A stretch of 64,000 nucleotides of DNA, taken from assembly GCA_963848295.1 (NCBI GenBank), contig CAWKDB010000010.1:4320001-4384000 (forward strand), written 5' to 3'. Below, one piece after another: positions 33,237 through 45,721 of the stretch. Origin of the DNA: an uncultured delta proteobacterium. GTDB lineage: Bacteria; Myxococcota_A; Polyangia; Haliangiales; Haliangiaceae. Positions within the stretch are counted from its first letter, which is position 1; each line of letters starts with the position of its first letter. The translations under genes and the position numbers were made by a program. The notes under the pieces were generated by a model. The model was not told where the DNA came from and did not search any database. It saw only the letters and a list, made by a program, of their open reading frames with translations.

Positions 33237-35165
33237 GTGATCATCCTCGAGATCCTGCAAGGCACCGCCGCCCAGCGCGTCTATCGGCTCGAGCCGTCGC
33301 GCGCGAGCGCCGCGACGATCGGTCGATCCCCCGCCAGCACCGTGCTGGTCACCGATTTTCATTTGTCCGGCGACCACGCTCAGATCACGCAGATCGGCGA
33401 GCGCTACGTGTTTCGCGACCTGCGGTCGACGAACGGCTCGGCGATCGAGCGCGACGGCAAACGGATGCCGGTCGACGCCGCGGCGCGCTGGGAGATCGCA
33501 CTCGAGGACGGCGACTTCCTGTTGCTCGGCAACGCCGCCGACCCGGTGCGGATCAGCGTGCGGTTCGCCGAGGAAGCCGACGACGATCTCGGCGAGCGGC
33601 TGATCGCATCGAAGTCGATCCTCGAGCTGCCGCAGATCACCGACCAGATCGAGGGCGATCCGGTCAGCGCGATGCGCGTTTACAAGGCGCTGCAACCGCT
33701 CGGCGCGCGCCTCGAGCCAGCCGAGGTGATCGATGCGACCGTCGCGGCGACGTTCGAGCTCCTGCCGCGCGCGACCCACGTCGCGGTGTTGCTGCGCTCC
33801 GACGCCGACAAGGACCGGTTCGCACTCGCGGTGTCGCGTCATCGCGGCGCGAACGTGCCGAAGGCGGATCCGGTGCGTGCTAGCCGATCGGTGTTGCGCC
33901 GAGTGCTGTCCGAGCGCGCCGCCGTGCTCACCGCGAACGCCCAAGAGGAGCTCGCGTCGAGCGACTCGATCATGGGGGGCCAGATCATGTCGATGATCGC
34001 GGTGCCGCTGTGGCGCGGCGACGACATCACCGGGCTGATCCAAGCCGACAATCGCTCGACCGCTGGGATGTTCACCGAGCGCGATCTCCAGGTCGCGCTG
34101 CTGCTCGGCGCGCAAGCTGCGCTCGCGATCGATAACGCGACGCTCGTCGGTCGGCTGAAGATCGCCGAGGAGCGAGCGCGCGGCGAGAACGTCTACCTCA
34201 AGCGGCGCGAGACCAAGATCCAGTTCGACAACATCATCGGTGGCTCGCCGGCGATGAAGGCGGTGCTGTCGCAGCTCGAGCGCGTGATCGATACGCGTGC
34301 GACGGTCTGCATCGAAGGCGAGACCGGCACCGGCAAGGAGCTGATCGCCGCGGCGGTGCACTACCAGTCGCAGCGCAAGGACAAGATGTTCGTCGCGCAG
34401 AACTGCGCGGCGTTGCCCGAGAACTTGCTCGAGTCCGAGCTGTTCGGTCACAAGCGCGGCGCGTTCACGAGCGCCGACTCCGACAAGAAGGGCCTGTTCG
34501 AGATCGCCGACGGTGGCACGCTGTTCCTCGACGAGATGGGCGAGATGCCGATGGCGCTGCAGGCGAAGCTGCTGCGCGTGCTGCAGGAAGGCACGATCCG
34601 CGCGGTCGGCGCGACGACCGAAAAGCAAGTCGACGTCAGGATCTTGTGCGCGACGAATCGCGATCTGTCGGCCGAGGTCGAGGCCGGGCGGTTTCGCCAG
34701 GACCTGTACTACCGCTTGATGGTGTTCCCGATCAAGCTGCCGCCATTGCGGGAGCGGCGCGAGGACATTCCCGAGCTCGCCGCGCATTTCTTGAAGCGCT
34801 ACGCCGCCGAATATCGCGTCGAGATGCCGGGGTTCACACCCGATGCGATCGACGCGCTGTGCGCCTACAACTGGCCGGGTAACATTCGCGAGCTCGAGAA
34901 CGAAGTGCAGCGGCTCGTCATCCAAGCCGAGTCGGGCCACTGGATCGAGTCGACCGATCTGTCGCCCCGGCTGCGCAAGATCGAAGGCACGGTGACGCGC
35001 GTCGCGCCGAAGCAAGGCACCCTCAAAGAGATGATGGAACAGGTCGAGCGCTGGCTGATCGCCGAGGCCTTGCGCGATCACGGCAACAACAAGACCCGGA
35101 CCGCGGCGACCCTCGGCATCACCCGCGAAGGCCTGCACAAGAAGCTCGCGAAGTTCGGGGTGTGA
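33237..35165 (+). CDS. Sigma54-dependent activator (FHA-GAF-AAA+-HTH)
   Basis: FHA IGR...LS..HA...[53 protein letters not shown]. Confidence 0.93.
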
Positions 35166-35182
35166 TGGTGACGCGGTGTGAT

Positions 35183-35274
35183 GGTGACGCTGTCTCTATT
35201 GTCAACTTGCGCCCGGGATCACCCCTTCAAACGGCGTCGTTTCGGGGTTAGTTGACAAAAGAGACAGCGTCCCC
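35183..35274. repeat. REP/MITE-like long inverted repeat between convergent genes
   Basis: 25-bp arms 35183-35207 and 35250-35274 with 2 mismatches, an inner hairpin, and an adjacent 16-bp tandem duplication at 35159-35190. Confidence 0.75.
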
Positions 35275-35277
35275 AGC

Positions 35278-36429
35278 TCAGGCGTCGTCTTCGGTCGCGG
35301 CGGCGGTCGGCGCCGTGAACGGCGTGCCTGACAGCTGGGCCATCGCGGTGGCCAGGTTGGCGACTTCGACGGACGCCGGTGCATTGCGCTTGAGCATGAA
35401 GGTGCAGGTCGCGCACGAGGTGACGACCATGCCACCGCCGGTTGCGTGAACTTCGGCGAGCCGGCGCTTGCTCATCTGATCGGCGACGAGCGGCATGGTC
35501 TTGGGCAACAATCCGCCACCGCCGCAGCATTCGGTGTCGCCCTTGTTCCACGCGAGCTCGCGGACCTCGACGAGCTGGCCGAGGGCGCGCCGCGGCGTCT
35601 CCATCACGTTCGAGTAGCGCGCGTGATAGCAGGGGTCGTGATAATAGACGCTGCGTCGCGTGATCGAGCACGCGAGATTCACGGCCGCAGGCGCGAGCAC
35701 GTCGGCGAGCGCGACGACCTCCGCCCGTACGGTGACGCCTTCGGCCGGGTACTGCGCGCGAATCGCGTACAGGCACGCCGAGCAGTTGATCGCGACCTTG
35801 CGAAACCCGCGCAGCGACGCGGCGACTCGGCCGGCATGCCAGCGAAACAGATCGCGATGGCCTGCCGCGAGCAACGGATAGCCGGCACAGGCTTGCGGCG
35901 CTCCGATCACGCGCACGTGGTCGAGACCCGTCCGGTCGAACAGCGCGAGCGCAGCGGCGATGTCACCGGCGCCCTTGTCGATCGCATCGCAGCCCGGCCA
36001 CAGTCCGATCTCGCCTTCGCTCGCGAGTCGCTCGGGGAACATCTGCGCCAGCTGCGTCGACAACCGATGTTCGCGCGCGCGAAACCGTTCGGCGTAACCC
36101 GCGAGTGCGGGATGCGGTATGCCGCGCTCGACCGCGGCGGCGCGGCCGGAGAACAGGACGAGCCCGGGCTCGTTGCCGTGGTCGCAATACATCGTGCAGT
36201 GGCGGCATCCGGTGCACGCCCACAACGGATCGGTCGAATCCGCGGTCCAGCCGCCGCGGCCGAGCCGCAGTTGGTTGAGCCGATCCATCTTTGCTTGCGG
36301 GATGAAGGTCTCGCGCCCGCTGGCGGTCGACACCGGGCACGCGTGGCGACACATCTTCGGGCAGAACGTGCAGTAGTCGAGCTGCTTCTCGACCGAGTGC
36401 GCCGAGAACGGCTCGCGTGGCTCGGACAT
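35278..36429 (-). CDS. (Fe-S)-binding oxidoreductase subunit (4Fe-4S dicluster + CCG domains, GlpC/HdrD-like)
   Basis: [42 protein letters not shown]. Confidence 0.88.
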
Positions 36430-37148
36430 CAGTTCAGGCCTTCGACGCGCTCGCGCAGCTGCGCGAGGTCGCGCGCGATCCGCGAGTTGCCGGGCTCGAG
36501 CACGGCGAGGCGTTCCAGGACGTCGAGCGAGCGCGGCAGATCGCCGTTGCGACCGTAGATCCCGGCGAGGTTGACGAGCATGCGCGCGACGATCTGGCGC
36601 TTGCTCGCCGCCGCGATCACGCTGGGCTCGAGGACCGCGGTCGGCGTGGTCGTCTTGCGCAACAGGGCTTCGAGATCGGACGGCGTCAGCGACCGCCCGT
36701 TGTCGTACGGATCGACGAACAGCCACGCGTCCTCGATCGCGACGCGCACGAGGAAGTGCCCGGGGAAGTTCACGCCCTGCGCGAGCACGCCGACGCGCCG
36801 AGCGACCTCGAGGTACACGACCGACAGCGTGATCGGGATGCCCATCCTGCGGTCGAGCACGTCGCACAAGAAGCTGTTGCGCGGATCGTAGTAGTCGTCG
36901 CTGTTGCCGGCGAAACCCAGGCGATCGAATAACCAGTCGCTGATCGCGCGGGCCCGACCGATGCCGCCGGGAGCGCGCCGGACGTCGTCGACGCAACGTT
37001 CCGCGATGTCGTCGAGCGTGTCGCGATAGCACTCGATGTCGCGCTCCGGATATTCCCAGGCGCCGATCTGCAGCGCGGCCTGGTCGAGCGGAAAATCATC
37101 GCGCGTCACCAGCTCGCTGAACCGGGACAGCCCCGGGCTGACGTCCAT
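36429..37148 (-). CDS. SirB1/transglutaminase-like protein with TPR tail
   Basis: GFAGN..DYYDPRNSFL..VL.RR.GIPITLS, GVNFPGHFL, FVDP. Confidence 0.88.
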   Translation of the reverse strand: MDVSPGLSRFSELVTRDDFPLDQAALQIGAWEYPERDIECYRDTLDDIAERCVDDVRRAPGGIGRARAISDWLFDRLGFAGNSDDYYDPRNSFLCDVLDRRMGIPITLSVVYLEVARRVGVLAQGVNFPGHFLVRVAIEDAWLFVDPYDNGRSLTPSDLEALLRKTTTPTAVLEPSVIAAASKRQIVARMLVNLAGIYGRNGDLPRSLDVLERLAVLEPGNSRIARDLAQLRERVEGLN

Positions 37149-37220
37149 CGTCCGAGCGTAGCATCGGTTTCGATCTCCGCGCCGCCGCAACGCGGCTGCG
37201 ATGTGCGAACATGATCTCGC

Positions 37221-38333
37221 ATGGCCGAGGAGCCCCGACCAGGGTTGATCGTCGGCGGTCGCTACGAGCTGATCGACGTAGCCGGCCGCGGCGGCATGGC
37301 TGACGTGTGGCACGGCCGGGTGCGCGGCGACTCGGGCTTTGTCCGCGATGTCGCGATCAAGCAGATGCACCAGAACCTCGCGGTCCAGCCGGGTTATGTC
37401 GCGATGTTCGTCGAGGAAGCGCGCATCGGCTCCGAGCTCCAATCGCCGAACGTCGCCGAGGTCCACGACTTCGTCAAAGACGGCGGCAACTACTACATGG
37501 TGCTCGAGTGGATCGATGGCGTCGATCTCGGCACGTGGGTGCGCTGGCACGGCGCGCGCAACGAGCTGACCCGGTGGGAGCTCGTGGCGGCCGTCGGCGT
37601 CGGGATCTTGCGCGGGCTCGCGGCGGCTCACGAGCGGATCGGCCCCGATGGCCTACCGATGCCGATCGTGCATCGCGATGTTTCGCCGCACAACGTGTTG
37701 CTCACCACGCGCGGCATGGTCAAGGTCGTCGACTTCGGGCTCGCGCTCGCGCCGGATCGACCGCAAGAAACGACCGAGCCGGGCATCGTCAAAGGCAAGA
37801 TGTCGTACCTCGCGCCCGAGATCGTGGGCGGCGGCCGACCGGTGCCGGGCAGCGACCAATTCGCGTGCGGCTCGGTGCTGTGGGAGTCACTCGTCGGTCG
37901 CAAGTTGTTCGAAGGCGCGACCGACTTCGAAACCTACACGCGCCTGCGCGATTGCATGGTCCAGCCGTTGCGGCCGTTGCGGCCCGACGTGCCGCCGCCG
38001 TTCATCGCGATCATCCAGCGCGCTCTCTCGGCGAACGTCGACGCACGGTTTCCATCGGCGCGCGAGATGGCGCGCCAGGTCGGTACGGTGCTCAAGAAGG
38101 TCCAGCTGCGCAAGGATCTCCACACCGTGCTCGCGCGCAGCGTCGTCGAGGCGCGCGAAGGCATGGGGCTCGGGCCGCGCACCGGCGACCCATCGACCGC
38201 GACCCCGATCGCTTCGATCGTCCCCGACGACACGCCGCGGATCGAGCTGGCGCCGAAGCCGGAGCTCGGCACGCTCGAGAAGCTGCGCAGCCTGCGCCAC
38301 AAGCTGCCGTTCTTCGGCCGCAAGCGCGGCTAG
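37221..38333 (+). CDS. Serine/threonine protein kinase (cytoplasmic)
   Basis: GRGGMADV, VAIK, HRDVSPHN, DFG, YLAPE, DQF; no TM segment. Confidence 0.95.
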   Translation: MAEEPRPGLIVGGRYELIDVAGRGGMADVWHGRVRGDSGFVRDVAIKQMHQNLAVQPGYVAMFVEEARIGSELQSPNVAEVHDFVKDGGNYYMVLEWIDGVDLGTWVRWHGARNELTRWELVAAVGVGILRGLAAAHERIGPDGLPMPIVHRDVSPHNVLLTTRGMVKVVDFGLALAPDRPQETTEPGIVKGKMSYLAPEIVGGGRPVPGSDQFACGSVLWESLVGRKLFEGATDFETYTRLRDCMVQPLRPLRPDVPPPFIAIIQRALSANVDARFPSAREMARQVGTVLKKVQLRKDLHTVLARSVVEAREGMGLGPRTGDPSTATPIASIVPDDTPRIELAPKPELGTLEKLRSLRHKLPFFGRKRG

Positions 38334-38337
38334 GCGA

Positions 38338-39045
38338 CTACTCGACGCCGCCCTCGACGCCGGCGTCGCTGTCGCTCTCGTCTTTCGGCACCGGGCGGAC
38401 GTAGATGTCATCGACGCGCCAATCGTCCTGCTCGCGCCGTAGCACGATGCGATAGCGCACGCCGTTCTCGTCCCAGCGCAGCTCCGCGCGGTCGTTGCCC
38501 GGCATATCGATGTTGCTCGACGTGATCCGTCGCCCGAGGCCGGACAAGAAGCCCTGGATCTGGCGCGTGAGGCCATCGCGACGTCGCTCGGTGAGCACGC
38601 CGAGCACCGCGCCGATGTCGCGCCGCTCGATCGCGTCCGCGAAGATCCGGATCGCGTCGATCGGATAGCGCGCGTGGGATCGGCTGACCAGCTCGGAGTC
38701 GAGCCGCCAGTTGTGCCCTTCGCGTTCGACCTCGACGGTCTTGCCGTCCGAGTAGCGGACGAGCGCGCGCTCGCCCACGTCCGGCGTGCCTTTGAGGCTG
38801 TCCTCGAGCTCTTGCGCCTGGCGCGCTCGCTCGTTCTGGGTCTGCTTCCACTGCGCCGAGAACTCCTCGTAGCTGACCTGCTTGCGTGCGTCGCCGGCGA
38901 GCAAGTCGTAGGCCGCGTGGGCGTCGTTCGAGCGCAACGCGGCGATGTACGTGCGCACGCCGTCGGAGGCGGGAGCGCGCGGGCCGGTCGGGCCACCGCA
39001 CGCCGTGAGGGCGAACAGGGCGACGAGGGTGCAGAGCTTGGTCAC
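38338..39045 (-). CDS. Hypothetical lipoprotein with two NTF2-like units
   Basis: Lipobox LTAC; two units ending REGHNWRL and REQDDWRV. Confidence 0.75.
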   Translation of the reverse strand: MTKLCTLVALFALTACGGPTGPRAPASDGVRTYIAALRSNDAHAAYDLLAGDARKQVSYEEFSAQWKQTQNERARQAQELEDSLKGTPDVGERALVRYSDGKTVEVEREGHNWRLDSELVSRSHARYPIDAIRIFADAIERRDIGAVLGVLTERRRDGLTRQIQGFLSGLGRRITSSNIDMPGNDRAELRWDENGVRYRIVLRREQDDWRVDDIYVRPVPKDESDSDAGVEGGVE

Positions 39046-39073
39046 GCCCTGGAGCGTAGCGTCCGTGAAAAGA

Positions 39074-39088
39074 CAAAGCCACCGAAGC
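39074..39088 (+). repeat. Left copy of 15-bp direct repeat CAAAGCCACCGAAGC
   Basis: Identical to 45754-45768. Confidence 0.8.
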
Positions 39089-39201
39089 GCGTGATTGGTC
39101 GTTCAGTTCGTTGCGCACCAAACCAGGTAGTTTGCCGAGCGTGGTCGGTCAGAAGAGCTTGACGCAGGGTTGCTGGAAGCTCGACGCTAGTCGAGCCGAC
39201 C

Positions 39202-39729
39202 GTGCCAGCCAAGCCCCGAGCACGTGCTCCGAACGCATCGCGGGCCCTGCGTTACCAGCATCGCGAAGTGATTCGCAGGTTCTCGAAGGATTGGCACGTC
39301 CCTGAACGCGAGGCGCGCCAGCTCTTCGACGATGTGAAGCGATACTTGTGGCTGACGACGCGCACCCGCTACCTGATAGCGCCGCCGGCGAGAGCGATCG
39401 ACGAGATGTGGCATACGTTCCTGCTATTCACTCGTGACTACGAACGGTTCTGCAAGCGGTACCTCGGTAAGATGGTCCATCACGTTCCAGCCACCACGAG
39501 CGCACTCGCGGCGGACGCTCGTCGCCGCGCTCGCGACCCCGTGCGGTGGCGCAAGGACATGCTCAGCGTGATCCTCCGAGAGCGGCGACTCGCACTTGTT
39601 CATTTCGGCGAGCGAACAATGAACCGGTGGTACGAGACGTACCGGCATCGCTACACGGCGGGGTTCTTCGACCGCCGCCCGGCTCGAGACTCCAAGGGGC
39701 GGCGGGCGATAATCGCGGCGAAGGGATGA
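39202..39729 (+). CDS. Glycine-rich-domain (GRDP/DUF1399)-like protein
   Basis: KRYLWL...P...IDEMWHTFLLFTRDYERFC..YLGKMVHHVP signature. Confidence 0.75.
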   Translation: MPAKPRARAPNASRALRYQHREVIRRFSKDWHVPEREARQLFDDVKRYLWLTTRTRYLIAPPARAIDEMWHTFLLFTRDYERFCKRYLGKMVHHVPATTSALAADARRRARDPVRWRKDMLSVILRERRLALVHFGERTMNRWYETYRHRYTAGFFDRRPARDSKGRRAIIAAKG

Positions 39730-40268
39730 CGGAGCGCTCTCGGGCCACCGTATCGCAACGGGCGCTCGACCCACTCGCGATACTCGCGAATCTCCCACCC
39801 TTCGTAGAGGGTCCGAAGCTCGCCAGGGCCGAATGCATGGCCGACCCCCAGGTCTGGCGGGCCCACCGTGAAGGCCACCGCCACGTGAACCCCGCCGGGG
39901 GCCGTCATCTCGCGGTGGCGTTCCACCATGCGACGTGCCAGCCCGCGAGGAAGGTGATGCAGCAAGTTCACGATGCATACGAGGTCGATCGACCGGCGCG
40001 GGACATACGCGAGTGCGTCCCGAGCGGCGACGCGAATCGCGAGCCGGTTGAGCTTGGCTAGGGAGCGGATGCGCGTGGCGAGCTGCCGATCCCGCTCGAT
40101 CGCGATCACCTGGAAGCCGAGCATCGCGAGCAGGAAACTGTGACGCCCGAAGCCAGCACCGACATCGATCGCTAGCGGTGCGTCGCTACCGACGCGTAGC
40201 TGCGACGCCGCCTTCAGGACGTACGGCGACGGCCTGCGGGCCCCGTCGTAGACGAACTTGCTGGCCAA
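39651..40268 (-). CDS. Class I SAM-dependent methyltransferase (TehB-like)
   Basis: IDVGAGFGRHS..LA..GF.V.AIE, DL...VNLLHHL, TAPGG, F.PGEL..LYEGWEI..Y.E; TTG start. Confidence 0.85.
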   Translation of the reverse strand: MASKFVYDGARRPSPYVLKAASQLRVGSDAPLAIDVGAGFGRHSFLLAMLGFQVIAIERDRQLATRIRSLAKLNRLAIRVAARDALAYVPRRSIDLVCIVNLLHHLPRGLARRMVERHREMTAPGGVHVAVAFTVGPPDLGVGHAFGPGELRTLYEGWEIREYREWVERPLRYGGPRALRHPFAAIIARRPLESRAGRRSKNPAV

Positions 40269-40282
40269 CTAGCGCTGGCCAA

Positions 40283-40432
40283 CTAACAAGGATGGCAAAT
40301 GCGCTGTTCGGCGATGCCGCCCGCCGCAGCCTTGAGATCCGCCTCGGCGAGCTTGCGGAGCTTCTTCTCCTGCGCGGGCGTGGTCTTGGCCTTTGACCAC
40401 GACGCCTTCGTAGTGTGCTTCGACTTTTTCAT
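40283..40432 (-). CDS. Double-glycine-leader peptide precursor (49 aa), absent from the ORF track
   Basis: MKKSKHTTKASWSKAKTTPAQEKKLRKLAEADLKAAAGG-IAEQRICHPC*; MKK start; same strand as, and between, the receptor and methyltransferase genes. Confidence 0.8.
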   Translation of the reverse strand: MKKSKHTTKASWSKAKTTPAQEKKLRKLAEADLKAAAGGIAEQRICHPC

Positions 40433-40444
40433 AATCCCAGGGCT

Positions 40445-40460
40445 TGCAAGCGACTAACCA
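40445..40460 (-). promoter_or_regulatory. Candidate sigma54 (-24/-12) promoter for the peptide gene
   Basis: Minus strand TGGTTAGTCGCTTGCA = GG-N10-GC with TTGCA; the -12 C lies 14 nt before the ATG. Confidence 0.55.
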
Positions 40461-40534
40461 GATGCTGTCCCGGCGCTTTCCACGCCTTACACGTGTCGAG
40501 CTCTGCACTATCCGATCGTCGCTGCACAATCTGA

Positions 40535-43500
40535 TCACTCGCAGTGTAGTTCCAGCGCCGACATCGGCACCAGGCGCTGACCGGTGAGCTTGAGGGGAAT
40601 CCGGCAGCGAAGCAGGGTGTCGAGCTCCTGTGGCGTGCGCCGCTCGAGGGCGACATCAACCACCGAGAGCCGGCCCGCATCGTCGACGTACACGAGGCGG
40701 CTCCCGTCAGGACTGAAAGCGACACCGGTGATGAAGCCTTTGCCATCGCCGAACTGCGTCAACAGCTCGCCGCTTTCGGCATCGAGCACGTTCACGACGC
40801 CGTCGTCAGTACCGAGTGCGATCCGTCCGCCGTCCGGGCTGACATCGACCGAATAGCCGTCCGCCATCCCTCTGGTTCTCATCAGCTCGCGGCCGGATTC
40901 TGGGTCAAGGACATACGTGGACGACCCCGTAACCGCCACCAGGAACCGGCCGGACGGGCCGACCGCAAAGCTATCAAGCTCGCCCGGACCCGCGTACGAA
41001 TGGATCGAAGCGAGGGTACTCGCATCGAGAATCGAGATCGCGCCGCCGCTCTGCGCGACAACGATTCGCGCTGGGTTCTCGAGCACTGCGATCGCTACAA
41101 TGCCACCACCTGGCAGAGTCCGCGATCGACGAACTGCACCCGCTTCGACGATCGCCACGCTTCCTCCGCTCGTCGCGACCGCGAGTCGACGCTCATCGAG
41201 ATACCTGATGCCCGTCACCCGACTGCCGAGAGATGCAGAGTCGACGGTGTTAGAAAGTGTGAACCCTAGCATTCGCACTCTGTCTTGATTGGCGACTGCA
41301 TAGCCGGTCGACGACGGAGAGAAGTCGCCGGAGGCAGACATCGACGACGCAGCCAGCCGATCGACCGAGTTGGGAGCCGGATCGCGGACGACGGGGGTGA
41401 CCGGCGCTTGGGTCTTAAAATCGTACACGAACGCAGGACCGTCCCAGCGTTGGACGAGCACGCGCGTGGAGTCCGACGAAAACCGAACCGACGATGCACC
41501 CGACGGAAACCTCAGCAAGACTCTGCTCGTATCGGCCGAGGGGTCGACGATCGCAACCGTTCGATCCGTGGATCCGGTAGCGAGGGATTGACCGTCTGGC
41601 GAGAACTCCAGCCTCGTGACCGCGCCGCTGTGTCCGAAGTCGCGATAGCGCTCGATGCCCGACACGGGATCCCAGATTCGCGTGGTCCGATCGACCGATC
41701 CGGTTGCGAGTCGCTTCCCATCTGCGCTCCAGGCCAGCGCGATGACGTATCCCTCGTGGCCGTTGAGCGATGACAGCAAACGCCCGGTGTCAGCATCCCA
41801 GACCTTGGCGGTGTGATCGAGACTTCCAGTAGCGATCCGTCGCCCGTCGGGGCTGAAGCTCGCGCGAATTACATCGCCGCTATGGCCGGCGAGCTCCCTC
41901 GATGCACCGGTGTCGATATCCCAGACGGTGACCTTGGTGCTGGAGTCGGGTACGGCGAGCACCTTTCGGCTCTCCGCACTGATCCCCACCGCATGCACGC
42001 GGCCCGAAACGTCGAACTGTCGCTGAAAGCCCGAGGTCGAATCGACCACGAGCGCGCCTGCTTTGACAGCGACCGCGATCCATGCGCCGGAGGTCACGAT
42101 CGTCTCGGTGCCTCCTTCGACGTCGGTGAGATCCGCTGCCACGTCTCGAACCAGGGCGCCGTCGATCGTGAACACGCGAATCACGTGGCGCCTGCCGTCG
42201 GAGATCGCCACAGCGGAGCCGTCATCGAGCAGTCGGGCCACGGCATCGTCACTCGCATCGAATTCGCGCACGAGGCGCCAATGATCGGTCTCGAAGATCG
42301 CGGGGCGTCGTCCGCGCGACACGAGCGCGTACCTTCCGTCCGCGGACAGGTCGACATCGATTCGAGACTTACCGAGGTCCTGCGATGAGATCCGCTTCCA
42401 GGTCTTGGTATCCCAGAGCTGCACCAGGCCGGAGTTGTCCGCCGTGCACAGACGTCGTCCATCGCGACTGTAAGACAGTCGATCTACCCAGTTCTTGTGC
42501 CCGGTGAGGATCACTCGATGAGCGCCGAGAGCTCGCACGGCGGTGCCCAAGAGGAATCGGACGTTTGATGTCGCGAGCCCTTGCCGGTACGCTTCTGCGA
42601 GAAACACGAGCGACTCGTCGAAGTGACCTCTAACCAATGCTTGTCGGCCCTGCTCCATCAACATGCCGAGGTTGCTGGCACGCAGCGCCGCAGCATTGTG
42701 CTCGGTCGCACGATTCGCACGCCACAGGCCGACGACGAACACCGCCGCGACGAGGAGCGCCATCGCGATCAGCGCGCGGCGGATCCGCCGGCCGCGCAGC
42801 GAGTCCGCGACGCTCGCTTCGCCAAAGGCGGCTTCGGCGGGCGTCAATCCATCGGGATGGCGCTTGCGCCACACCTGGTATTCGGCGAGCGCGTCGCCGC
42901 GCCACAACAAGCCGCGCGCTCGGCCCCGGGCGTCCCATTGTCTCGCCGCCGCGCGCAGCTGCTCGTGGAAGCGCGAGCCTTCCGCGTCTTCGAGACGCCA
43001 TTCGACGAGCCGCGGCCACGCGCCGAGCAGCGCCTCGTGCACGATCTCGATCACCGCGCCGCCCTCGGCCTCCGAGGTCACGACCAGCCGCGATTCGATC
43101 AACCGCTCGATCACGCGCTCGGCCTCGGCGCTGCCGCCGAGCAACGCGAGTAGCTCGGCGCGGGCGAGCACCGCACGCGTGCCTTCGGAGGTGGTCAAGT
43201 GGCGGAACGCCTTGCGCACGAGGGCGCGCTCGGACGGCGGCAGCGCGTCCACCGTGTCGTCGGCGTGACGCGCGAGCGCGCCGGTAACGCCGCCGATGGC
43301 CTCGTACGCCTTCTTCGGTATCTGGTGGAAGTGGCGATCGCGCAGCTCCCACCAGCGCGTCGCGGTGAACGAGATCAGCGCGACCGCGGCCGGCGTATCG
43401 CCAGCATCCGCAACGATGCGGGCGGGCAACTGCGGATCGTCGAGCTCGTAGCCGGCCCGGCGAAGCGGCTCGACGATGATCCGCTCGAGCGCGGCCGGCG

Positions 43501-45721
43501 CGAGCGGGCCGACCAGCTGCAAGCCGCGAGCGAGCGCGAGGTCGAGCCCGGGCAGCTGCTGTGCCCGGATCAGAAAGTCGTCGCGCAGCGTGATCGCGAC
43601 GCGGATCCGATCGTCGACCGTCGGAGCGAGTAACAACTCGACGAACCGCGCTCGCTCGTCAGCGCTCGCTCCGAGTGTGAATAGCTCTTCGAATTGATCG
43701 ACGACGATTAGCAGGCCGCGCTCGCGCGTCGCCTCGCGCAATCGCGCGAGGACGTTGTCACCCGCGCCGATCGCGATGCCCACGTGCGCGAGTTGCCCGA
43801 ACAAGTGCGCGAGCGGCGAACGGCCAGGGCGCGTGGTCGCGACCTGCCAGCCGTCGAGCGCCGGTGCGACACCCGCGTGGACGAACGAGCTCTTGCCGAC
43901 TCCGGACGGGCCAACGATCGCGACGAGCGGCTCGAGCTTGAGCCGATTGACGACGATGTCGGTCTCGCGCTCGCGGCCGAAGAACCCGGCGGCGTCGGCC
44001 CGGGTATACGACGCGAGGCCCTTGTACGGACTGTCTTCGCTCGGGCCTTGTTGCGCTTCGCTGTCGTCGCGGAACAGCTGATCGCGGAACCAATCCCACA
44101 GCGTGTCGTCGCGATGCTCGAAGTTGTGCGGCAGCGACGTCAAGCGCGCACTCGCCCGCGCGGGACCGGCGAGCAGGAACAGCTGATCGGTGTGGCCCGG
44201 CACTGCGAGCTGGACTTGCATCAGCGGCCAGGGCGCGAGCAGCGGTATGCCGGCGGCGTCGATCACGACCGGCTGGCCCTCGGGTAACGCGCGCGCGAGT
44301 GGCACGCTGCGCCGCGGCCCGGTGCGCGTGCCCATCCAGACCTCGCCGAGCGGACCGCGCGGCACGACGACCTGGTAGGCGTCGAGAAACCCAAGCGCGC
44401 GGAGCAACGACGCGATCACGGGCAGCTCGCGCACGATCGATTGAATCGCCGCTTCTTCGCTGACCTCGCCTAGCGCCTCCGCGAGCGTGCCCTGCAGCGC
44501 CGGCGCGAACGCGTGCGGGCCCGACGTCGGATGCAGCAGCAGTGCGAGCTCGGGAATCGGATAGGTGTCGGGCAGCCGTGCGAACGGCTTGGTCAGCTCG
44601 TCGGCGAGCGCGATCCAGCCGGCCGGCGTCAGGCCTTGGCGGCGCAAGTCGCGCAGTAGATCGCGCGCGCGGGGAGAATCCTGTGGCGCTCCACTGCCGA
44701 CTCGCGTGCGGCAGGCGAGCGCGAGGATGCCGACGTACCACGCCGAGATCCGCACGATGCCGCGCATCGCTTCGCGCGCTTGGTGCGCGTTCTTGGCGGC
44801 GTCGTAGCTGGCGACGGCATCCGCGATCGGCTGCGGTGCGTTCGCGAGTGCCTGAACGCGGAGTTCTTCGTCGAGCTGGGGCAGCTCGATCGTTGTCGAG
44901 CCGATGCCGGCGGCGTCCCGAAAGGCTTGCGCGAGCTCGAGCACGTTGCCGAAGCGTTCGGCTGGCTTCTTCGCGAGCGCGCGAGAGATGACCGCATCGA
45001 GCGCCGGCGGAAATCCGTCGCCGAGCGGCGCGACCTTACCTCTCGCGTGGGCCCGTGCGATTTCCATCACCGTCGCACCGGTGAATGCGAACCGACCGGT
45101 CAGCGCTTCATACGCGAGGGCTCCGAGCGCGTATTGGTCCGCCGGCGCGCCTGCGTGCTTCGCGTCGATCCACAGCTCGGGTGCCATGTACGCGGGCGAG
45201 CCGAGCACACCGCGAGTCGATGCGGGCGCTTCGTCCGCGGTCGCGCGCGCGATGCCGAAATCAAGCAGCTTCGGCAGCAGCCTACCCGCGCGCGAAATCA
45301 CCATCACGTTGTCGGGTTTCAGGTCGCGATGGATGATCCCCTGCTCGTGCGCGGTCTGCACGACCTCGCAGATCCGCTCGAGCAGCGGCACGAACCGCTC
45401 GATCGGCATCGGCCCCTGCGCTTCGCTGACCTCGCGCAAAGAGGCACCGCGCACGCGCTCCATCGCGATCCACAACGTGCCGTCGGGTTCCGCGCCGAAC
45501 GCGTAGATGTGCGCGGCGTAGGGGTGGTCTAGGCGCGACGCGAGCTGCGCTTCGCGCAAGAAACTGTCGACTCGCGCCGGATCGCCCGCCTCGCGCAGCA
45601 GCTTGACGATCGCTTCGCGATGCAGCGCGCTCTGTTCGGCTAGAAAGATGTCGCCGAACCCGCCGGAGCCAATCTGCTCGCGCAACACGAAGCCGCCGAG
45701 GCTGCGGTCGCCGTCAGGCAT
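40535..45721 (-). CDS. Ser/Thr kinase - STAND NTPase (nSTAND1-like) - TM - WD40 repeat protein
   Basis: GSGGFG, HRDLKPDN, DFG, YMAPE; PYKGL...FFGRE, GPSGVGKSS, VVDQFEELFT; TM ALIAMALLVAAVFVVGLW; many GH...FSPDG...WD repeats. Confidence 0.92.
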   Translation of the reverse strand: MPDGDRSLGGFVLREQIGSGGFGDIFLAEQSALHREAIVKLLREAGDPARVDSFLREAQLASRLDHPYAAHIYAFGAEPDGTLWIAMERVRGASLREVSEAQGPMPIERFVPLLERICEVVQTAHEQGIIHRDLKPDNVMVISRAGRLLPKLLDFGIARATADEAPASTRGVLGSPAYMAPELWIDAKHAGAPADQYALGALAYEALTGRFAFTGATVMEIARAHARGKVAPLGDGFPPALDAVISRALAKKPAERFGNVLELAQAFRDAAGIGSTTIELPQLDEELRVQALANAPQPIADAVASYDAAKNAHQAREAMRGIVRISAWYVGILALACRTRVGSGAPQDSPRARDLLRDLRRQGLTPAGWIALADELTKPFARLPDTYPIPELALLLHPTSGPHAFAPALQGTLAEALGEVSEEAAIQSIVRELPVIASLLRALGFLDAYQVVVPRGPLGEVWMGTRTGPRRSVPLARALPEGQPVVIDAAGIPLLAPWPLMQVQLAVPGHTDQLFLLAGPARASARLTSLPHNFEHRDDTLWDWFRDQLFRDDSEAQQGPSEDSPYKGLASYTRADAAGFFGRERETDIVVNRLKLEPLVAIVGPSGVGKSSFVHAGVAPALDGWQVATTRPGRSPLAHLFGQLAHVGIAIGAGDNVLARLREATRERGLLIVVDQFEELFTLGASADERARFVELLLAPTVDDRIRVAITLRDDFLIRAQQLPGLDLALARGLQLVGPLAPAALERIIVEPLRRAGYELDDPQLPARIVADAGDTPAAVALISFTATRWWELRDRHFHQIPKKAYEAIGGVTGALARHADDTVDALPPSERALVRKAFRHLTTSEGTRAVLARAELLALLGGSAEAERVIERLIESRLVVTSEAEGGAVIEIVHEALLGAWPRLVEWRLEDAEGSRFHEQLRAAARQWDARGRARGLLWRGDALAEYQVWRKRHPDGLTPAEAAFGEASVADSLRGRRIRRALIAMALLVAAVFVVGLWRANRATEHNAAALRASNLGMLMEQGRQALVRGHFDESLVFLAEAYRQGLATSNVRFLLGTAVRALGAHRVILTGHKNWVDRLSYSRDGRRLCTADNSGLVQLWDTKTWKRISSQDLGKSRIDVDLSADGRYALVSRGRRPAIFETDHWRLVREFDASDDAVARLLDDGSAVAISDGRRHVIRVFTIDGALVRDVAADLTDVEGGTETIVTSGAWIAVAVKAGALVVDSTSGFQRQFDVSGRVHAVGISAESRKVLAVPDSSTKVTVWDIDTGASRELAGHSGDVIRASFSPDGRRIATGSLDHTAKVWDADTGRLLSSLNGHEGYVIALAWSADGKRLATGSVDRTTRIWDPVSGIERYRDFGHSGAVTRLEFSPDGQSLATGSTDRTVAIVDPSADTSRVLLRFPSGASSVRFSSDSTRVLVQRWDGPAFVYDFKTQAPVTPVVRDPAPNSVDRLAASSMSASGDFSPSSTGYAVANQDRVRMLGFTLSNTVDSASLGSRVTGIRYLDERRLAVATSGGSVAIVEAGAVRRSRTLPGGGIVAIAVLENPARIVVAQSGGAISILDASTLASIHSYAGPGELDSFAVGPSGRFLVAVTGSSTYVLDPESGRELMRTRGMADGYSVDVSPDGGRIALGTDDGVVNVLDAESGELLTQFGDGKGFITGVAFSPDGSRLVYVDDAGRLSVVDVALERRTPQELDTLLRCRIPLKLTGQRLVPMSALELHCE

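Follow-up and report, generated by a model that had tools for sequence, protein, structure and literature searches.

The locus analysed here raised two questions, namely whether a 49-codon ORF between a receptor kinase gene and a methyltransferase gene is a gene at all and, if so, what its product would be for. A preliminary description, made from the letters of the DNA, had proposed a hidden double-glycine precursor of a secreted, possibly modified peptide. The window, i.e., the whole stretch analysed, comprises 64,000 nucleotides (C10:4320001-4384000) of the 7.8-Mb host genome G000. The features needed for the argument are the following.

33237-35165, plus strand: FHA-GAF-sigma-54 activator, from domain matches, 5 kb away and outside the swapped block
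39013-42715, no strand given: exchanged block with sensor, promoter, peptide, methyltransferase and PF27765 genes, from comparison with genome G104
39202-39729, plus strand: His-rich PF27765 (UCP032817-like, GRDP-related) protein of 175 aa, from a precomputed family label
39651-40268, minus strand: class I SAM methyltransferase, TehB-like, 205 aa, from a PF03848 match
40283-40432, minus strand: precursor peptide gene, 49 aa, from the translated ORF, the orthologue P0023 and paralogues
40446-40460, minus strand: sigma-54-type -24/-12 element, TGG-N9-TGC, from the sequence, ending 13 nt before the ATG
40535-45721, minus strand: receptor of 1,728 aa, from Pfam, hydropathy and intact motifs
40535-42715, minus strand: receptor residues 1003-1728, the WD40 sensor that has been swapped, from comparison with G104, trees and a model

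Read on the minus strand, positions 40432-40283 gave exactly the 49 residues and stop of the preliminary description, which had named no strand, and the plus strand of 40283-40432 contains a stop. The product has a Lys-rich leader of 39 amino acids ending in double glycine (40432-40316) and a core of 10 amino acids, IAEQRICHPC, with two Cys, the last of them C-terminal (40315-40286). Counted back from the double glycine, the leader positions are Leu(-12), Leu(-7), Ala(-4), Gly(-2), and Gly(-1). The PCAT motif, as given in the available text of PMC10885120, has hydrophobic residues at -4, -7, and -12 and a GG, GA, or GS end; the leader of the window ORF agrees with this double-glycine rule, as does that of P0023. 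A pattern of GG leader, Lys-rich start and at least two core Cys had a single occurrence in the window and none in 200 windows simulated with a Markov model, the pattern having been defined post hoc with the ORF already known. Scans of the ORF against Pfam and NCBIfam gave no model above cut-off, and the exact 49-residue sequence was absent from a collection of 15 billion proteins. Among 5.8 billion cluster representatives the peptide had a sole homologue, P0023, which is 83-85% identical with a near-identical leader and had already been annotated as a gene independently of this analysis. Its core, IAEERICKC, keeps the two Cys and the terminal Cys, but not the CxxC spacing and the His. P0023 is encoded on a contig of 220,839 bases, and P0003, an 87% identical orthologue of the PF27765 protein, is also found on a contig of 220,839 bases.

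Such leaders were carried by 11 of the 31,898 short ORFs of G000, i.e., the window ORF and ten paralogues. When searched with a profile of 48 other leaders, from which it had been left out, the window ORF ranked 11th of the 31,898 (E = 0.015), directly after its ten paralogues. Paralogous loci carry radical SAM C-methyltransferases, which flank two of them, a methyltransferase or a LanC-like gene, and two of the paralogous leaders passed NF038153 (25.8 and 31.4 bits; cut-off 22). We also noticed a three-copy precursor subfamily in G000 with long Thr/Ala/Arg-rich cores (C10:2562936, C10:2866493, and C10:2999764; L166 and L168), located away from receptors and without the sigma-54 motif. The variable-core paralogues which the preliminary description had proposed to seek with a leader HMM were thus found, ten of them in the same genome, and homologous leaders were present in related genomes too. 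Minus-strand ORF, motif, orthologue, and paralogues agree on a hidden double-glycine precursor with L(-12)..L(-7)..GG spacing. On these sequence grounds we conclude that the 49-codon ORF is a real double-glycine precursor gene, presumably translated. The precursor itself held. Overlooked in the preliminary description were the neighbouring receptor, the exchange of the cassette, PF27765 on the opposite strand, and the sigma-54-type promoter, in which most of the meaning lies.

The minus strand carries, in this order, the receptor, 103 nt from its stop codon to the peptide ATG, the peptide, 14 nt from its stop to the methyltransferase start, and the 205-aa methyltransferase. The PF27765 gene lies opposite on the plus strand, convergent with the methyltransferase gene, which it overlaps. 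A short direct repeat (40256-40287) covers both the stop codon of the peptide gene and the beginning of the methyltransferase gene, perhaps as a scar of gene insertion. The receptor comprises a Ser/Thr kinase (residues 13-258), an nSTAND1 NTPase (565-936), a predicted TM helix (982-1000), and a C-terminal WD40 region, and its kinase catalytic and Walker motifs are intact. The TM helix was called by hydropathy alone, the stretch having a hydropathy of 2.3 and basic residues on its N side, the same as in five homologues. The WD40 part is predicted to lie outside the inner membrane, in the periplasm. A model of the sensor, based on a four-sequence alignment, had a pLDDT of 67 and was nearly all beta; its best Foldseek rows were tandem propellers, including Apaf-1, with E of 3e-32 but a TM-score below 0.3, and we predict from the model that the sensor consists of tandem beta-propellers. 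When homologues of the WD40 region were sought, generic proteins with WD40 repeats were obtained, which gave no further information.

There are 13 nSTAND1-kinase loci in G000, seven of them with a WD40 region. A leader ORF was found beside the gene for 7/7 of the WD40-bearing nSTAND1 kinases and for 0/6 of those without WD40. The same was true of 3 of the 178 other kinase ORFs in the genome, one of the three belonging to a receptor locus. Four of the seven receptor genes are split over two frames (C10:350317-355616, C10:4158825-4163662, C2:313733-319070, and C2:724425-729981), either through assembly error or decay, and pairing distances for the split receptors were measured to the gene ends.

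The pairing extends over the genus. Close receptor homologues were present in at least 53 of 91 genus genomes and matches to an alignment of 13 precursors in 43 of 91; both tallies include one positive from G010, an unpublished genome that enters no other result. Of the 104 rows from genomes other than G000, 60 receptor regions were used, the upper part of the list supplying 40 and the lower part 20; in choosing the upper 40, three others already in the set and several on short contigs were skipped. A leader-profile match (E<0.01) lay within 1.5 kb in 23 of the 60 regions (20/40 closer and 3/20 more distant), one locus overlapping the training set of the profile. By eye, a peptide was found in 30/40 closer and 4/20 more distant regions. 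Within 1.6 kb of the receptor no peptide was seen in 10/40 of the closer cases, 4 of these 10 ending at a contig edge, and in 16/20 of the more distant ones, and the receptor architecture therefore also exists peptide-free. Viewed from the peptide side, a kinase, nSTAND1, or WD40 gene was within 1.5 kb at 10 of 28 leader loci in other genomes, so that most such leaders are not at receptors. At several loci the peptide is tail-to-tail or head-to-head with the receptor. Scanning of 48 proteins neighbouring receptors gave LanC-like, LanB, flavoprotein, radical SAM, and MbnB/TglH/ChrH proteins as well as sigma-54 activators, five of them with FHA.

Several groups of receptor loci were recorded along the way. 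One receptor clade, tight in both trees, has tandem GG precursors with cores like CxxC...CxxC zinc ribbons with Gly tails (L202:1769-2223, L204:1861-2285, L208:8904-9167, L216:7917-8536, and L217:8061-8651), and adjoins a conserved 500-aa protein with at most a weak metallo-beta-lactamase-fold match. Receptors at L211:2000-2345, L213:7370-8757, and L215:7325-8397 have short, Cys-free, Pro-containing cores of IPKQ type and adjoin an uncharacterised protein of 300-413 aa with no Pfam match at 1e-9. At L222, L230, L232, and L224 the peptides end in Cys, LanC-like genes are nearby, and the sensors form one clade; three of these four loci have a flavoprotein, probably LanD-like. At L207:598-2491 a long ORF rich in Cys and Gly lies next to the receptor, as does an enzyme of the MbnB/TglH/ChrH type.

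At the corresponding chromosomal position a sister species has L195 (G104:C393), which is 92% identical to the window over 38001-39012 and 86% over 42716-45094, with no significant match between. Compared in blocks of 75 residues, the L195 receptor shares 81-96% identity with that of the window as far as residue 975; over the WD40 part, where the two sensors are unrelated, the identity is about 25%, the swap junction being receptor residue 1002, at the end of the TM helix. L195 carries a different precursor (core NFRCANTHG, one Cys) and neither the methyltransferase nor the PF27765 protein, and in G104 there was no match to PF27765 or to the sensor of the window. GC3 is 0.72-0.81 in the block versus 0.85-0.92 in the cytoplasmic part of the receptor and the flanks. 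Sensor, peptide, and enzymes have evidently been exchanged together, in a single block bounded by the TM helix. For a sensor matched to its signal, one would predict just such a break, within the receptor and at the membrane. When the locus was compared at the DNA level with 41 relatives, a PF27765 fragment was all that was obtained beyond short matches attributable to chance. Sequencing run X2 contained short pieces of 85-95% identity over methyltransferase and sensor, from which linkage was not evident, and sequencing-run contigs matched to 38000-43500 barely reach the peptide gene. Run X1 may represent the source sample, and no RNA run was listed as containing the locus.

Among 68 other receptors, the best matches of the sensor were L163, L161, and L162 (223, 218, and 169 bits, respectively), the next one having 139 bits. 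A search of the 91 genus genomes, in which 12 candidates per genome were scored, gave only these three as other sensors at E<=1e-40 (G063:C156, G075:C34, and G075:C16, corresponding to L161-L163). The sensors of these loci and the window are only 29-33% identical. Each of these loci has the receptor, then a GG precursor with adjacent Cys and a convergent PF27765 gene, and methyltransferases are nearby. The cores share little beyond neighbouring Cys, with patterns CxxHCxHC, CC..CC, and CC; with the orthologue P0023 ending in CKC as well, the CxxC emphasised in the preliminary description is not supported as the defining motif.

Trees of the two receptor parts were in conflict. In the nSTAND1 tree of 16 receptors, the window and L195 were joined (99) and a group of the window with the three PF27765-linked receptors was rejected (p-AU 7.9e-16), whereas in the WD40 tree of 16 receptors the window was joined with the three PF27765-linked ones (99) and its grouping with L195 was rejected (p-AU 4.1e-6), the groups for the AU tests having been named after the FastTree result was known. 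The FastTree of 46 receptors had the same conflict between NTPase and sensor. The PF27765-type sensor loci number four in total, from three genomes of one genus. Adjacent genes travel together, so one old block transfer could yield this conflict without a bond between ligand and receptor.

The PF27765 label was found on the identical protein P0002 and on all 21 matches, and on Atlas clusters at 0.94; it was precomputed, the family model itself not being in the local Pfam copy. A distant homologue passes PF07173 (GRDP-like, formerly DUF1399). PF27765 matches occurred in 14 of the 91 genus genomes. The 80 genome loci studied were the best 80 of 108, picked by the motif DEMWHTF, the conservation of which is therefore by construction; in the alignment His94 was present in 81/81 rows and Cys84 in 80/81. 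A short ORF with a KxxLIxxL leader lay within 1.5 kb at 35 of these 80 loci, and none farther out. Other Cys peptides were found by eye at 24 more loci and fused Cys tails at 5, giving 64/80 in total, and the same association with Cys peptides was seen at metagenome loci, among the 35 of 45 that were listed. The window leader had no score on the KxxLIxxL leader profile and was not placed in that family of PF27765 partners. The model of the PF27765 protein was all-helical (pLDDT 86.5), with no Foldseek match at E<=0.001 and a best Z of 4.1 among 48,161 chains, by which a new fold is not implied. A predicted complex with the precursor scored 0.46 versus 0.02 for the best control, which is weak support: the mark was reached by 116/157 solved complexes and 2/215 mismatches, and scores of 0.60 or below comprised only 18/157 solved pairs and both mismatches. 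In this complex the partner had a pLDDT of 60-61, and at least 82% of contacts were common to the runs. We regard the PF27765 protein as a candidate Cys-modifying or peptide-binding protein; the motif and the Cys-peptide partners suggest that it may modify Cys in a metal-dependent manner.

Several other PF27765 arrangements were observed. Short peptides with a KxxLIxxLxxKN leader and a Cys core are widespread beside PF27765 (35 loci within L072-L149). Fused forms, in which enterobacterial-type homologues have a similar helix and Cys tail at the protein end, were seen at L095, L112, L133, L033, L041, L049, and L056. A receptor-free operon of three genes in the same genus, encoding PF27765, a TehB-like methyltransferase, and a GG precursor with two CxxC motifs, was present at L013-L016, L076, L077, L081, and L087. 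At L070 / L164 (G014:C28) the PF27765 gene immediately follows that of a precursor with a terminal CxxC and belongs to a cluster of ABC transporter and HlyD genes, and the last residues of this PF27765 protein nearly match those of the PF27765 protein in the window.

The methyltransferase scored 45.9 bits against PF03848 (cut-off 20.4). As a TehB tellurite methyltransferase it was rejected, having 48-54 bits versus equivalog cut-offs of 218-303. A single methyltransferase lineage tied to PF27765 was not supported either, the best relative at other PF27765 loci being 34% identical over 102 aa. Class I methyltransferases as such were the commonest PF27765 neighbours, with 12 of 147 flanking ORFs (147 of the 149 picked were scanned), and ATP-grasp maturases (5) and TauD-like dioxygenases (5) also occurred among the 147.

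None of the known maturation routes considered fits the block. A lanthipeptide (class I-V) was rejected, as the core has no Ser/Thr, nor has that of P0023, and no LanB/LanC, LanM, LanKC, or LanL is found among the block genes; LanB and LanC-like genes are present at other loci. No radical SAM-SPASM maturase as in sactipeptides or ranthipeptides is among the four genes of the block, and these absences, along with that of Ser/Thr, leave the thioether cyclisation of lanthionine type that had been considered for the core unsupported. An MNIO-modified (MbnB/TglH/ChrH) Cys peptide was rejected too, the block having no PF05114 match; one match lies beside receptor L207. The receptor kinase itself was discarded as the modifying enzyme of the peptide, the core being without Ser/Thr/Tyr. 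That the peptide is modified in some way, as first suggested, is nevertheless probable, since the swapped block that carries its gene also encodes a methyltransferase and a protein of PF27765, a family associated with Cys peptides.

Secretion, also proposed initially, is likewise predicted and probable. G000 has one C39 (PF03412) transporter above cut-off, with intact Cys/His motifs and accompanied by HlyD and TolC; it is situated on contig C2 beside a LanB gene, and not on the contig of the window. C39 matches numbered one in G104, four in G075, and three in G063, two of them at receptor loci: at G075:C34 the match immediately precedes the receptor, and at G063:C156 it lies close to it. The region C2:786000-800000 of G000 (L160), with C39 transporter, HlyD, TolC, and LanB, is adjoined by an ORF that by eye is reverse-transcriptase-like.

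The peptide gene is preceded by TGG-N9-TGC, which we take to be a sigma-54 promoter according to the -24/-12 consensus. Its spacing to the ATG suggests a near-leaderless transcript. Within 160 nt upstream, the motif was found at 21 of 48 precursor genes, in all cases 13-19 nt before the ATG, versus a shuffle mean of 2.5 of 48 and a background of 4.2% of 1,531 other genes. In G000 it was present at 4/7 receptor-linked precursors and 0/4 others, and the strict motif was absent at all three other PF27765-type loci. FHA-bearing sigma-54 activators are targets of kinases in Myxococcus, and work by Jelsbak from 2005 reportedly deals with such FHA enhancer-binding proteins. The FHA-GAF-sigma-54 activator of the window is a possible output of the receptor kinase, and similar activators flank other receptor-peptide loci. 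Just outside the block, at 33237-38333, the activator is accompanied by a second Ser/Thr kinase; G104 has retained both this kinase and the neighbour of the kinase.

We lean towards the reading that the peptide, likely modified and exported, is the cognate signal of the neighbouring receptor in a pherotype-like polymorphic circuit, and consider this somewhat probable from the genomic evidence. The two-Cys core would then be modified, likely by the PF27765 protein and possibly by the methyltransferase; the precursor would be cut after GG, exported by the C39 transporter of the genome, and would re-enter the periplasm. There the matured peptide would be bound by its cognate, predicted periplasmic WD40 propellers, and binding would cluster the STAND domains and activate the kinase. 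The kinase would phosphorylate the FHA-bearing activator, and sigma-54 genes would be switched on, among them the gene of the peptide itself as a positive feedback. Each receptor-peptide pair would represent one private channel, with seven of them in G000, and a swap of the 3' block would change the channel and keep the cytoplasmic output. A broader proposal, which we put forward tentatively and with more doubt than trust, is that Kofleriaceae myxobacteria use multi-channel peptide signalling, resembling a eukaryotic receptor in its construction, through single-pass Ser/Thr kinase–STAND receptors with periplasmic WD40 propellers, each reading one self-made modified peptide, and that new channels arise by recombination at the TM helix. 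PF27765 would in that case be a Cys-modifying metalloenzyme of unsolved fold which matures the signal here and defines a new RiPP class across many phyla.

The same locus might instead be a sensor-triggered effector. The WD40 part would then respond to something foreign, be it prey, a competitor, a phage, or damage, and the kinase would turn on the adjacent peptide as an antimicrobial, toxin against rivals, or alarm output that is not the ligand of this receptor. Indeed, nSTAND1 proteins with C-terminal invader sensors occur in putative conflict systems, as far as described in the available parts of PMC8195603 and PMC10907252. Many neighbours are tailoring genes of antimicrobial type (LanB, LanC, flavoprotein), the sigma-54 motif would equally suit an inducible output, and peptide-free receptors exist. 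We hold this for unlikely, since such an effector would not predict that the sensor type tracks the type of peptide and enzyme, nor an exchange point at the TM boundary; many cores have 8-15 residues, which is short for killers, and no immunity gene was seen in the block. Block swap and co-segregation are explained as well as by a cognate signal if the receptor detects an antagonistic RiPP, or the version of a rival, and triggers protection; the pairing would be real and its purpose conflict, not density sensing. The tail-to-tail or head-to-head position of several peptides suits such surveillance. The activator-dependent promoter motif directly on the peptide gene, however, suggests feedback, and with a very small core we find self-immunity quite improbable.

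Handling of metals or chalcogens deserves little credence. It would involve an exported metal-binding peptide, a TehB-like enzyme methylating thiol, Se, or Te, and PF27765 as a metal chaperone, with the receptor sensing the metal-peptide or being a mere neighbour. The CHPC core and the TehB-like match are in line with this, as are the conserved Asp/Glu/His/Cys of PF27765 and its nearly always Cys-rich partners, but the orthologue P0023 does without the His and the CxxC spacing, the slot in the sister species holds a one-Cys peptide and no enzymes, no metal transporter is in the block, and paralogous slots hold Cys-free cores. That the neighbourhood is due to chance, with an unexpressed ORF as a silent remnant or the receptor 3' end as an insertion hot spot for peptide islands, is very hard to believe. 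The exact peptide sequence is absent from the protein collection, the GC of the block looks foreign, and G000 has several receptor paralogues broken into two reading frames, all of which would agree with chance; against it stand a called orthologue with a near-identical leader, the 7/7 versus 0/6 pairing, a positioned promoter motif, and a foreign sensor fused in frame to an intact kinase.

If the peptide is the cognate signal of its receptor, it would show what kind of ligand is read by a large set of myxobacterial kinase–STAND–WD40 proteins that are so far orphans, and would place STAND proteins in self-signalling, beyond invader sensing. The window and G104 would offer natural matched and mismatched pairs for a direct test. 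The 49-aa precursor, the 175-aa PF27765 protein, and the 205-aa methyltransferase would form a minimal substrate-enzyme set with which a function might first be identified for PF27765 and for the related GRDP proteins of plants. A literature search for the function of PF27765 found none and gave only plant GRDP papers, and a search excluding subscription journals and supplements found no paper on the receptor-peptide-enzyme unit. Judging from the available parts of the sources, some papers obtained in this search dealt with fungal NLRs and conflict systems.

The agr system of Staphylococcus is a peptide-pheromone cassette with pherotypes. Bacillus ComQXPA is another such cassette, as described in the available text of PMC12935306, and in Streptococcus ComC/ComAB/ComDE the double-glycine leader of ComC is removed by a C39 transporter, according to the part available of PMC10885120. 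As in these three systems, the small, presumably processed peptide, the putative maturation gene, and the sensing end vary together at our locus, and the catalytic kinase end is kept; the double-glycine leader is shared with ComC. Unlike their histidine kinases, the receptor of the window combines a Hanks-type Ser/Thr kinase with nSTAND1, one TM helix, and WD40. The locus further differs from the Gram-positive cassettes in having no response regulator, a probable sigma-54 output, a Gram-negative host, seven channels in a single genome, and maturation genes from many RiPP classes. The Lys-rich start and GG end of the precursor resemble the class I lanthipeptide precursors of NF038153 (lant_leader_L1a), but the window ORF and P0023 do not match that model, and the KLxL motif, a Ser/Thr core, and LanB/LanC in the block are missing. 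With the nSTAND1 conflict proteins the receptor shares an N-terminal effector, here the kinase, a central NTPase, and a variable C-terminal sensor, and it departs from them, as they are presented in the available parts of PMC8195603 and PMC10907252, by the TM helix between NTPase and sensor and by its tie to a peptide and tailoring enzymes. The logic of an export-leader peptide, a matched sensor, and an exchangeable specificity block is thus known from Gram-positive pheromones, whilst other families are represented in its receptor, in the probable output, and in the protein proposed for maturation.
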